A stretch of DNA of 64,000 bases, taken from Naegleria gruberi. Its lineage: Eukaryota. How positions within the stretch are numbered: position 1 is the stretch's first letter; every line of letters begins with the position of its first letter. Positions 1 through 5,047 of the stretch are shown piece after piece. Where the stretch lies: the NCBI GenBank assembly GCA_000004985.1, contig GG738852.1, one strand, 5' to 3'. The notes under the pieces are model-generated. The model was not told the origin of the DNA and made no database searches. It saw only the letters and a program-made list of their open reading frames with translations. Made by a program: the position numbers and the translations under genes.

Positions 1-2392
1 ATATCACAATCTGACAAAACTGTCCATGCTTCATTGAATAAACTCTGAGTAAGCTTTGGTAAAACAGATCTACTGACTGTTTTGTTTCAACAATGAATTA
101 TTATGGAGCAATGTTAAAAATTACAATCTAAAAGAAAAACTTACGTTGTGTAGCACCAATTTCTCCAATACCTATTCCTTCCAGGGTTGAGAATAACATC
201 TCCGTATTCATCTTGGTAACCATGGCTAACAATTTGCTTTGTTGATGCTTGAGACTACACACAGGTGCCAAAGCAATGAACATGTCCAATTTCTTTTGTA
301 ACTCTGGGAATAATGTCAAGGCAACAAACGCTTGTGTAGTTCCTTGAGAATGGCCAACATAGGATAATTTCTCTACTTGAGTGAACTTGAGTACGTATTT
401 AATTTGGGCTGGGAAATCAAATTTTGCCATTTCAGTAAATGAGAATTTCCAAAATTCCTTGTCTGTAAAGCTATTCCATGAAATGTGTTTTCTACTAAAT
501 TGAACGCCTCTATTATTTCCAAGCCAAACATCAAAACCTGCATCTGCGAGCATGAATGCAAAGCTATATTTTTGGCCTCCAATAAGCCAAGCAGAGCTAG
601 AATTGAAAACGCCATGTTGTAAGAATACTACAGGTCTCTTCTTTTTCTTTCTTCTTTCCAATTCGTCCTCTAATAAAATTTCATCCTTGAAAAGCATGAG
701 GGAATTCAAATTTCCATGAGGAATTCTGTGAATTTGCAACACGTATCCATCACTGGTAACGGTTTCGTGTTTTTCAATTGGATATCCTTGTTGTCTTACA
801 AAATCAAAAATTGATTCTTGCTCTTGGTCGTGAGACGTCAACTTAATTTTGTCTGATTTCTTATTTGGTTGTGACTCTTTAAATTTCTGTGGTGCACTCA
901 TAAGAATATCATGTGCAAGTTTGGTACTGTTATTTGGTGCTTGAATCAGTTCCCAGTCACTAAGGTTGCTTCTTTCATCTTCCATAATTAAGAGAGAATC
1001 TCTCAATTCCATTCCACTCAATCCATTGGATACTTCGTTTAATAGGGTCTTTTCTCGTTCACCTTTTTTAATTCTATCATCAACCTCAAGTAGGAGTGCA
1101 GTTGGCATGTGTTGATGAATAAGTTTACAAAAGTCTTTGTTTGACTCTCCATACTCTTCTCTTGCAGTTTGGTAGGCTACTCTTCCACTACCATCTCTCA
1201 ACTTGAGAACACGATCCAAAATTTCCAAACTCTTGTACTGATCGATGAGCATTCTACAAATTTCCGTATTGCCTGTTTGGGCACAGAGATGGAATGGGGT
1301 TCTTCCCTCCTTATCTGCATGGAGGAGCATGTCTATCATTTTATCCTCATCAACTAGTAAGAGCAAATGCGGCAATAACTCAATCGAACCAGATTTGACA
1401 CAAATGTGAAAAACATTTTCATTGAAAATGGTTGTCAAATAGAGGTCACTTCCAAGATCCACCAAAGTTTGAATAGTTTCTTGGGATGATTTTGCCAATA
1501 TGGCACAAAATAGTGGGGTATACTTTTCATCATTCAATTCGTCAATATTAATCTTCATTTCCATTTCCTTCTCAGGTTCCTTCTTTTTAAAGAGAGAAAG
1601 GAAGGATACTTTCTCTGGACTAGAAGGAATTACTTTTTTAATTTCATCAGTCCATGTGGCCATCTTGTCATAATAATATGACAAGTATTCTGATGAAATT
1701 GATTTTTTTTGTACAGATTCTTCCTTCTTGACAAGTGCATCTGAAACAGTTTCAAGAGTTGAAGCAGAAACCACTTCGACAGGCATAGCCACTTGTTTAA
1801 ACTTGAGAATATGATACTCATCCTTCAAGAGTGTTAAAATACATTGTATAATTTGATAATTTCCAGTTTTACAAGCCAAATGCAAAATGGTATCATTATT
1901 CCTCGATGTTTTGATGAGTAACATTTTACGAATAACAGAATCAGGAATATAATTATTTCCCTCTGTCAAATAATTGATCATTTCCAAATCTTGTCTCATC
2001 ACTGAAACGTGAATAATAGAACATTTTCCAAGTATTGTATAATTAATTTTCTTATTCGTTAATAACAATTGTAAAATTGATTTAAACGATTCACTATTAG
2101 TAGTTTCCTCTTTCAATGACTGATGCAATTTCCTCGAGAGTAAATCATCAAGCAATTTAATATTTCCCTGTTTTACAGCATTATTCAGAGTCATACCAAA
2201 TCGATGATCATCCTTGATATACTCATCTAATGCTGTTCCGATATTATTTACATCTTCCTCTCCTCCCAATAGAAGAGTTTCATCAGTCATTCTATCATCC
2301 TCATCAACTACCAATTCATCAGTAGTATTTGTTGTATTGGTGGTATTGTTATTAGTTCTTCTCCAAGAAGGGATCATTCTCTTAAAAAACAA
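1..2392 (-). CDS. Ankyrin-repeat + acid lipase (alpha/beta-hydrolase, LIPA/gastric-lipase family) fusion protein. Exon 1 is 145..2392, a 68-nt intron (GTAAGT...AACAG) spans 77..144, and exon 2 runs from 76 down past the window start (3' end of gene outside window).
   Basis: There is a 754-aa ORF with ATG at 2392. The N-terminal half has ankyrin-like repeats (TPLFCAILAKS.., GRTPFHLCAQTGNTEI..). The C-terminal half has the Abhydro_lipase region and the nucleophile elbow VGHSQGTTQAF, identical to human LIPA/LIPF. The ORF stops about 85 aa after the catalytic Ser, so Asp/His must lie downstream. A GTAAGT donor sits exactly at the ORF end (phase 1), and the frame reopens after AACAG at 77 and runs to position 1. 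Confidence 0.75.
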
Positions 2393-2518
2393 CCGCCACT
2401 ATTGTGGTGAGCAAGCAGTGTAGAAAGTTTTTTTGTTTGATGGCATGTTCATCATTTGAATGTTCAACCCAAAATAATTTTCAGTGTTTGATGATGTAAT
2501 ACAAATGAAAAAGAGAGT

Positions 2519-2577
2519 GGAGATCCCCGTACCTCTTCCATGCTAAAGAAGCGCTCTACCATGTGAGCTACATCCCC
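2519..2577 (-). pseudogene. tRNA-Ala(AGC)-derived pseudogene/fragment. Acceptor 5' half, D-arm, anticodon arm and variable loop are present, but the T-arm is deleted.
   Basis: The minus-strand read is GGGGATGTAGCTCACATGGTAGAGCGCTTCTTTAGCATGGAAGAGGTACGGGG|ATCTCCA. The D-arm is canonical. The anticodon loop is TTAGCAT (anticodon AGC). G3:U70 is preserved in the retained ATCTCC 3' strand. About 13 nt (T-loop plus 3' T-stem) are missing between CGGGG and ATCTCCA. Confidence 0.5.
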
Positions 2578-3217: not shown

Positions 3218-5047
3218 ATGGGAAGAAAGAAAAAGCAGGTTACTCTAATTGATTTGGAGTGTTATACGTTTTGTTATGAATTGATTTATTCCGATAAGGA
3301 TACTAGGGATTGTTTCTTTGATTATTTGATAACCACTCATAATGAAGGTAAATAGTTTCGAATAGTATAATATTTATTTATCATACGAATTTATTCATTA
3401 ATAGAGGCCATTTACTTTATTCAAAAAGTACAACAATTTAAAAAGAAGGATTTGACCAATAACAAGAAGGCCAAACTTGCAATTGAAATATTTAATTGTT
3501 ATTTGAAAGATGGTGGAAAATACGAATTGAATTTATCATCAAAAGATAGACAACACATCAAGGAAGAGTACGAAAAGGTTGGACAGTTGGATAATTGCGA
3601 AACCTGTCTTCTTTCCGATAATATATTTACTGCTCTGGAGCAGCAAATTCACTTGAGTTTGAAAGAAGCTAATTTTCCACATTTCATCAAATCTCCTAAA
3701 TTCAGAGAGCTTGCCATGAAGCAAACAACAGATTTCCTGGATAAGATTGGTTTTAGAATGAATGCTAAAAAGATTGATATTATTCAAAGATTACTGGGTT
3801 CTTCATCATCTATAATTGCATCACCTTCAACACAAAGTTTGGCAAGTCTTGATGGTTCAATGGACTCTTTTAGATTGAGTGAAAGTCTCACAGGTCCAAT
3901 TATTGATCCAAATGCCTTCCTCAGAGGAGAATCATCAAATGGTTGGAAATTATTGGACAAACATTCACATATTACTGTGGAAGATTTCAGATTTATGGCA
4001 TGCAAGGTTTTCGAAAAGGATTCCAAAGCTCAAGACATGAGCAAATTCTTCCAAAATTTGGTTGGTGATCCATCTGCAGATAGCACATCAAGAAGACAAT
4101 CAGCTCCAAACTTGGCAAGTAAATCTGCATCCTATTCAGAGAGATCAATGTCTCTCTCAGTCAACAACTCTCCAAGTCTCCAACGATACAATAGCGAAAA
4201 TAATAATGTGAGAAAAATTTCAATAGATTCATCTAGTAATGTGACGGAATATTTTGAGGATATGTGGACAAAGAGTGAGAAGAAGACATCCAATTACACA
4301 CTGTATAGTTATGATTTGAAAACTTCAATGTTCGACGAGGCAGATACTGATGTTATGGAATCACTGAAAAATATTCACATATTCAAGACTGAAGTGGAAT
4401 ATCCTTACAATGTAGATTTTGTTGTGGAAACATTCGCCAGATCACAGTATAGAATTGATTTTGACAATATGTTGAAAGAATCATTTTCTCTCGATTTTAT
4501 GCACGTTCATCAACCTCCAAGTGAGGGTGAGGTTAGACGTGAGGAAGTTTCGAGTAGCATGTTACAAGAGGTTTGGCGATTTTCCTACTCACTTCTCAAT
4601 CTCAAAGATAGAAGTTTCATTGTCGAGTCGAGTCTCATGTACGATGAGCAGAATAGAGCTTATTTACTATTGAAAAAATCAGTAGATAATGTCATTATTG
4701 ATGATAGTGATTGTGTCAGAGGTCGTCTCTTGCAATTAATGGTATTTGAGAGAAAGGAGAAGGAAAAGACAATCATGACAGATTTTGTAGTTTTGGATAT
4801 GAAGGACAGTGTAAATAATATAATTTTTGAGAATTGTGTTGCCAAGAGAGCAAAAGAGTTTTACGATAAGGGAATGTCTGCTCTAAAAGCAAACATGGAA
4901 CTCATCAAACATAACTTCCCAACACCAAGCGATAGCGACCGTATTTTGGAAACACTTGTCAATAATAACAAGTGTGGATATTGTAAACTAGGATTCAAAC
5001 TGAGGACGAATAATAATTCTGATCTAGATGACCTGGACGATTTGTAA
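3218..5047 (+). CDS. RGS (regulator of G-protein signalling) domain protein with a long Ser/Asn-rich C-terminal region. Exon 1 is 3218..3347, a 57-nt intron (GTAAAT...TTAATAG) spans 3348..3404, and exon 2 is 3405..5047.
   Basis: Exon 1 reads MGRKKKQVTLIDLECYTFCYELIYSDKDTRDCFFDYLITTHNEG and splices in phase 1 to EAIYFIQKVQQFKKK...KLAIEIFNCYLKDGG...FTALEQQIHLSLKEANFPHFIKSPKFRE. This is the classic RGS box layout: a nine-helix bundle with conserved IY..FI, A..I...YL and F..A...I motifs. Confidence 0.75.

Follow-up and report, generated by a model that had tools for sequence, protein, structure and literature searches.

An ankyrin-repeat solenoid joined to an acid-lipase domain in Naegleria gruberi and related Heterolobosea: a putative cytosolic neutral-lipid esterase

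Introduction

Acid lipases are textbook lumenal enzymes and ankyrin repeats are typical of intracellular proteins, so that a gene joining the two raises the questions whether the fusion is real, how widespread it is and where its product would act. Such a gene opens the 64,000-nucleotide stretch of Naegleria gruberi DNA analysed here (contig GG738852.1, assembly GCA_000004985.1; the whole stretch is called the window below), in which it lies on the minus strand. An earlier note, made from the letters of this DNA, had described it as a leaderless acid lipase behind ankyrin-like repeats, cytosolic and scaffold-tethered by its looks. What is newly seen is the ankyrin-acid-lipase fusion, while both component families are already known; the fusion is a rare variant within these families and has no bearing on a long-standing open question.

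Results

One two-exon gene encodes both the ankyrin and the lipase half of a single protein (Table 1). The mechanical open reading frame (ORF) spans 128..2392 on the minus strand (754 codons), and the probability of so many stop-free codons, computed from the composition of the window (34% G+C), is about 3e-25. An in-frame TAG precedes the first ATG by eight codons, and the terminal residues of the ORF (RKFFF before the stop) are intron read-through. Splicing joins ...GEIGATQ to LSRSVLPKLTQSLFNEAWTVLSDCD (i.e. ...GATQ followed by LSRSVLPKL...), whereupon exon 2 continues the lipase domain and leaves the window at base 1. This junction (144/77) was accepted because orthologues read GATQLSRTFLPKL there, matching the spliced product, and because an intron, 71 nt long, sits at the same place in L001, an ENA metagenome contig 98-99% identical to the window. 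L001 also supplied the missing 3' end of the gene, as about 180 further exon 2 codons lie outside the window and were read from this contig (98% identity), giving a complete protein of 948 amino acids (aa). Neither a stop nor a separate start was found between the halves, and N. fowleri, N. lovaniensis and Willaertia magna keep them in one protein, which disposes of the possibility, raised in the earlier note, that they are separate genes.

Within exon 1, window and L001 differ at three sites, all synonymous, and by one 9-nt indel in the Asn/Thr-rich tract (window 2344-2355, minus strand, aa 8-11: TNNNTTNTTNTT vs TTTNTTNTT); flanks and intron diverge more than exon 1. A selection ratio for this pair was dropped because the divergence is too small. 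The NCBI record for N. gruberi, a 'predicted protein, partial' of 375 aa (P0005), matches window aa 522-769 at every residue but two; these lie at the exon junction, where its shifted splice gives ...ATQRNRSV... (RN) and not the orthologue-supported ...ATQLSRSV... (LS). It is flagged partial, has no start codon of its own and covers the lipase half alone, so that the fusion is invisible in the reference annotation; the reference model should gain 521 N-terminal residues.

The LIPA/LIPF-like nature of the catalytic core, proposed before, was borne out by Pfam (besides the Abhydro_lipase region of Table 1, Abhydrolase_1, PF00561, at aa 582-708 with 54.5 bits against a cut-off of 25.8) and by phmmer, with which aa 509-891 of the complete protein aligned over the whole chain (~370 residues) to three solved enzymes, i.e. 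dog gastric lipase (1K8Q, E 3.9e-64), human gastric lipase (1HLG, E 1.6e-62) and human lysosomal acid lipase (6V7N, E 1.7e-60). The VGHSQGTTQAF motif named in the earlier note was found at aa 674-684 (window 326-358). The triad Asp (TLDYLANP) and His (KHNDFVWG), read in L001, are invariant in all 12 clade members aligned and match those of 1HLG and 1K8Q. The cap/lid region is present and alignable to the solved lipases but strongly diverged from the vertebrate enzymes: none of the 12 aligned clade members retains either cysteine of the vertebrate lid disulfide, and the clade carries motifs not found in animal enzymes (EPSPTS in place of NPAGTS, KHNDFVWG, MDCD). The lipase half is complete, with an intact Ser-Asp-His triad, and is predicted to be catalytically competent.

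Two further features set this domain apart. The acidic-then-basic insert NLNSLMLFKDEILLEDELERRKKKK, the basic run of which abuts the PVVFLQHG strand, is common to the long ankyrin forms and to protein P0006; neither the vertebrate enzymes nor the short ankyrin forms have it. A low-complexity C-terminal extension with a conserved EEQE stretch and a terminal ...YYS/YYT follows the lipase domain in the Naegleria and Willaertia orthologues (read from L001 beyond the window start) and is absent from the vertebrate enzymes.

For the N-terminal half, hidden Markov model (HMM) searches and structure prediction agree. On the 749-aa ORF, Pfam gave Ank_4 at 71.6 bits, Ank_2 at 65.3 (cut-off 27.3), Ank_3 at 55.8, Ank at 51.6 and Ank_5 at 35.1; ankyrin scores were two to three times the cut-offs, and the same families matched in the orthologues. 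Five diverse family members went into an AlphaFold (AF2) model of aa 1-509, whose predicted local distance difference test (pLDDT) score averaged 70 and rose above 90 in each of the repeat blocks. A Foldseek search with this model against the PDB returned ankyrin proteins alone (FEM1B, AnkB/G, designed ankyrins), at E ~1e-7, over ~360-380 aligned columns and with TM-scores by target of 0.5-0.8 (up to 0.81). The region is thus confirmed by HMM and by modelled fold as a true ankyrin solenoid, with a predicted seven to eight repeats in two blocks. The earlier picture of a run of about 350 aa of repeats ahead of the lipase in one exon holds as to the single ORF; the repeats themselves form two blocks within aa 57-425, with 95 aa inserted between them and a 90-aa linker behind. 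Block 1 contains the motifs NAVKQG and LGKCSIIH, conserved in six long forms, and the acidic N-terminus noted before is present at aa 20-56.

Table 1. Features of the ankyrin-lipase gene and its product in the window
Feature	Residues	Position in window	Strand	Basis and remarks
Ankyrin-lipase exon 1		145..2377	-	ATG at 2377; 744 codons + 1 nt; spliced translation checked
Intron, 68 nt, phase 1		77..144	-	GTAAGT donor at 144, CAG acceptor at 77 (GT-AG); inside lipase cap region
Exon 2 start, 25 codons, SRSVLPKLTQSLFNEAWTVLSDCD	742-766	1..76	-	Cut by window edge; tblastn with full-length L001 protein
N-terminal tail, Asn/Thr-rich then acidic	1-56	2210..2377	-	pLDDT <50 for aa 1-47, predicted disordered; poorly conserved among orthologues
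Ankyrin block 1, ~3-4 repeats	57-190	1808..2209	-	Ank_5 at aa 160-181, 35 bits; pLDDT 86-96 for aa 120-190
Inter-block insert	191-285	1523..1807	-	Predicted disordered loop; pLDDT <50 for aa 197-228, ~50 for helices 227-260
Conserved insert motif SSEYLSYYYDKMATWTDEIKK...SFLSLF	228-266	1580-1696	-	Kept in Naegleria
Ankyrin block 2, ~4 repeats	286-425	1103..1522	-	Ank_2 aa 291-381, Ank 358-380, Ank_4 348-378; pLDDT 85-95
Linker	426-515	833..1102	-	Two long predicted helices (426-454, 458-472), then disordered stretch; AF2 secondary structure and pLDDT
SDWELI, W-x-x-I with acidic/Ser flank, xLIR-type candidate	473-478	944..961	-	Regular expression and alignment; helix-to-disorder boundary of linker
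Acid-lipase domain, exon 1 part	516-744	146..832	-	Pfam; phmmer; 83-84% identity to Naegleria orthologues
Abhydro_lipase region	525-600	578-805	-	PF04083, 72.2 bits (cut-off 27)
Clade-specific acidic-then-basic insert NLNSLMLFKDEILLEDELERRKKKK	556-580	638..712	-	Alignment with vertebrate enzymes and short ankyrin forms
HG oxyanion motif FLQHGV	585-590	608-625	-	Invariant in clade alignment
Nucleophile elbow GHSQG	675-679	341-355	-	Invariant in clade alignment

Related taxa carry the same fusion. Ankyrin and lipase Pfam matches were found together in an 'unnamed protein product' of N. fowleri (1024 aa) and in N. lovaniensis C9374_009803 (1073 aa), each with 59% identity, and the full architecture is present in Willaertia magna KAL9643254.1 (1013 aa), which is 50% identical to the N. 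lovaniensis orthologue. Two metagenome proteins share this architecture, one of 831 aa with ankyrin repeats recognised by Pfam and one of 930 aa with repeats recognised by a consensus-ankyrin phmmer search. In the 831-aa protein an unbroken HMMER stretch runs from ankyrin block 2 through the linker into the lipase (query 322-951), and in Willaertia magna the best HMMER stretch starts within ankyrin block 2. Between Naegleria species, identity amounts to 51-65% in the ankyrin blocks, 53% in the linker (vs N. fowleri) and 84% in the lipase, and the N-terminal tails and low-complexity inserts vary in length among the database orthologues, which are named hypothetical or after the lipase domain alone but have the linker motifs in common. 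Since the N-terminal motifs (NAVKQ, LG[KR]CS.LH) and the helices after the repeats are common to the six long forms, the fusion is, as judged from these sequences, inherited and not assembled repeatedly.

The architecture is uncommon, as the earlier note had supposed. With the full-length N. lovaniensis protein as query, 1.84 billion representatives yielded 1308 proteins at E <= 1e-30, and the long proteins among the best 150 of these were mostly tandem lipase duplications, not ankyrin fusions. Ankyrin repeats and lipase occurred together in 11 of the 269 collected proteins (including the best 150; consensus-ankyrin search), equivalent to nine clusters at 90% identity, five of which come from metagenomes, Logan and EukProt, beyond N. 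fowleri, N. lovaniensis and Willaertia. Among the 80 best metagenome loci a single one (L003) had ankyrin repeats next to a lipase, a weak lower bound given that these contigs are mostly short. In viral contigs no relative was found, leaving a giant-virus origin without sign, and in the literature neither an ankyrin-acid-lipase fusion nor a Naegleria acid lipase came up in our searches. The architecture is real, conserved and apparently rare, with Heterolobosea (Naegleria, Willaertia) as its only named hosts among identifiable organisms.

Short forms (451-561 aa; P0011, P0013, P0019) from Logan, EukProt and JGI data have about four ankyrin repeats directly before a lipase of the same clade. 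In a neighbour-joining tree of 121 lipase domains, which carries no support values and is indicative, four long ankyrin forms and one short form (the sole one past the length filter) fell into a single clade, together with two Percolomonas-type proteins whose N-terminal extensions are not ankyrin and three sequences with no detected ankyrin repeats, one of them a truncated copy of a long form. An amphipathic lipid-droplet-binding helix, sought in aa 228-266 and in the FW-x-K motifs of the short forms, was rejected, the hydrophobic moments there being unremarkable.

As to location, aa 1-40 contain no N-terminal hydrophobic stretch: the best 10-residue Kyte-Doolittle mean is 0.41, whereas four control acid lipases with a signal peptide (three from vertebrates, one library representative) reach 2.4-3.3. 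This agrees with the previous reading that a signal peptide is missing. All ankyrin-lipases lack a hydrophobic N-terminus by this measure (0.4-1.0 in aa 1-40), and none has a segment of transmembrane strength, with the best 19-residue window of the Naegleria protein at or below 1.33. Since signal peptide and transmembrane segment are missing, the lid cysteines are lost and ankyrin repeats are typically intracellular, a location outside the secretory pathway, in the cytosol, is favoured. The cytosolic placement of the earlier note is supported to this extent by the missing hydrophobic segments and the lost cysteines, and the support is indirect.

Discussion

We propose, with moderate confidence, that this protein is a catalytically competent neutral-lipid esterase which stays outside the secretory pathway and works in the cytosol under the control of its ankyrin half. 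The lipase half would hydrolyse neutral lipid esters (triacylglycerol, steryl/cholesteryl esters) via its Ser-Asp-His triad, and hydrolysis would take place on the cytosolic face of a membrane or lipid droplet. The ankyrin half may serve as a protein-binding platform that sets where or when the lipase acts, by targeting or by allosteric control. Location, substrate class and the role of the ankyrin repeats are all inferred from sequence. Several points weigh against this proposal. The test for a signal peptide was one of hydropathy alone, and the Asp and His codons of the exact window locus fall outside the window. The substrate class is assumed from family membership. A full-length AlphaFold model of the N. 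lovaniensis protein, made from a 3-sequence alignment, had a mean pLDDT of 32 and was unusable for contacts between ankyrin repeats and lipase. Lastly, a leaderless protein can still reach a lytic compartment, as yeast Tgl1 does by an ESCRT-dependent route (PMC12793711).

This last point leads to the idea that the protein is made in the cytosol but acts at acid pH inside the lysosome or food vacuole, arriving there by an unconventional route, which we consider unlikely. Either selective autophagy (a W-x-x-I/V motif plus Atg8) or ESCRT-dependent uptake with lipid droplets would be the route, and the ankyrin half would act as cargo or receptor adaptor. The catalytic domain does belong to the acid-lipase family, of which Tgl1 is a member that enters the yeast vacuole, where it is the chief steryl ester hydrolase (PMC12793711), and an xLIR-type motif (SDWELI, GEWEVI or SEWEVV) is kept in position in four vahlkampfiid orthologues (N. 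gruberi, N. fowleri, N. lovaniensis, Willaertia). However, a protein holds about as many such motifs as its shuffled sequence would (2 observed vs 1.9 expected), and neither the long metagenome forms P0126 and P0269 nor the short ankyrin forms carry the conserved one. A lid without its disulfide also suits a reducing compartment more than a lytic lumen, and the transport of Tgl1 is independent of macroautophagy. With the motif count at chance and the motif missing from other forms, SDWELI was kept as a mere lead. The narrower proposal that in vahlkampfiids selective autophagy brings a leaderless acid lipase into the lysosome, with [SG][DE]WE[LV][IV] binding Atg8 and the ankyrin repeats binding lipid droplets or a receptor, is speculative and quite improbable; if true, it would represent a cytoplasm-to-vacuole targeting (Cvt)-like or lipophagy-coupled route for a lysosomal hydrolase outside fungi.

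It is likewise doubtful that the catalytic domain is an esterase for a non-lipid or signalling-lipid substrate, or mainly a binding module in a regulatory or scaffolding protein. Such a role would fit a cap/lid so unlike that of vertebrate enzymes, the clade-specific acidic-basic insert and motifs such as EPSPTS for NPAGTS, but throughout the clade no change is seen in the triad, the HG oxyanion motif or the GHSQG elbow, and conservation along the protein is highest in the lipase half (84%), as expected of an active enzyme. Lipolytic activities are released by Naegleria, and leaderless secretion occurs among protists; even so, unconventional export with extracellular action on prey or host lipids seems very unlikely, as every orthologue lacks a signal peptide by hydropathy, ankyrin repeats are typically intracellular, the disulfide cysteines are lost and the non-pathogenic N. 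gruberi has the gene just as well, as does Willaertia. That the fusion is an artefact, with two adjacent genes read as one or a region that is not truly ankyrin, hardly deserves credence. The lone lipase half in the NCBI reference protein (375 aa, 'partial') would fit it, but that model is partial and lacks its own start codon, whereas the gene has 744 stop-free codons (P ~3e-25), three independently annotated genomes and several metagenome ORFs keep the halves in one protein, the linker is conserved, and the ankyrin repeats score two to three times the HMM cut-offs with a confirmed fold.

The proposed cytosolic, ankyrin-controlled esterase can be compared with three known systems. Mammalian LIPF (1HLG; dog 1K8Q) and LIPA (6V7N) are ~37% identical to the Naegleria protein and alike end to end in the catalytic domain, sharing the Abhydro_lipase region, the HG motif, GHSQG and the triad Asp and His with the cap between. 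Signal peptide and lid disulfide are present in the mammalian enzymes, which carry no domain beyond the lipase, whereas the Naegleria protein is devoid of signal peptide, transmembrane segment and lid cysteines. Its cap/lid is remodelled, an acidic-basic stretch of 16-18 aa is inserted, and the chain is longer at both ends, by a C-terminal tail and by 515 N-terminal residues that include the ankyrin repeats. The view in the earlier note that canonical acid lipases are secreted or lysosomal is too strong for the family as a whole: yeast Tgl1, Yeh1 and Yeh2 are membrane-anchored members, going by the title of Koffel et al. 2005 as cited in PMC3890349, and Tgl1 is active in two places, the cytoplasm and the vacuole, the latter reached by ESCRT-dependent uptake (PMC12793711). 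By this published family assignment, the likeness lies in their being non-classical members that act on neutral lipid esters from the cytoplasmic side; they differ in being described as membrane-anchored and in having no ankyrin repeats, while the Naegleria protein has no predicted membrane anchor.

The calcium-independent phospholipase iPLA2-beta (PLA2G6) is leaderless as well and combines N-terminal ankyrin repeats with a C-terminal lipid hydrolase. The ankyrin domains, which flank the hydrolase, flare outward, poised for membrane proteins, and it is through them that ATP and calmodulin exert allosteric control (PMC5823874, PMC11621833). The hydrolase of iPLA2-beta has a patatin fold, whereas the Naegleria catalytic domain is an alpha/beta hydrolase with no patatin match in Pfam. 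We regard iPLA2-beta as the nearest working analogy for how the Naegleria protein might function, not as a sign of family membership. If the leaderless reading is true, one eukaryotic lineage would have put the acid-lipase fold to use in cytosolic lipolysis under the control of partners, paralleling the ankyrin repeats of iPLA2-beta. N. gruberi favours lipids over glucose as fuel (PMC6205838) and orlistat, a lipase inhibitor, slows its growth (PMC7526813), which makes intracellular Naegleria lipases of practical interest, including those of the pathogen N. fowleri, which has an orthologue.

Neighbouring features

Head-to-head with the lipase gene lies a gene on the plus strand (3218-3347 and 3405-5047) for a protein of ~590 aa with an N-terminal RGS domain (Pfam RGS, E 5e-15); its 57-nt intron (3348-3404) was placed by eye. 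An Rfam match to the snR75 snoRNA inside this gene (3751-3829, minus strand; 20.5 bits vs a gathering threshold of 40, E 0.56) is most likely due to chance. ARAGORN predicted no tRNA across the 64 kb. The intergenic region of ~840 bp between the lipase and RGS genes contains a tRNA-Ala(AGC)-like relic (window 2506-2577, minus strand), ~130 nt upstream of the lipase ATG and present as a single copy in the window. Its Rfam score is 25.6 bits against a gathering threshold of 29, and the 5' half of the acceptor, the D-arm and the anticodon arm are intact, while the T-arm is deleted and a T-run follows.

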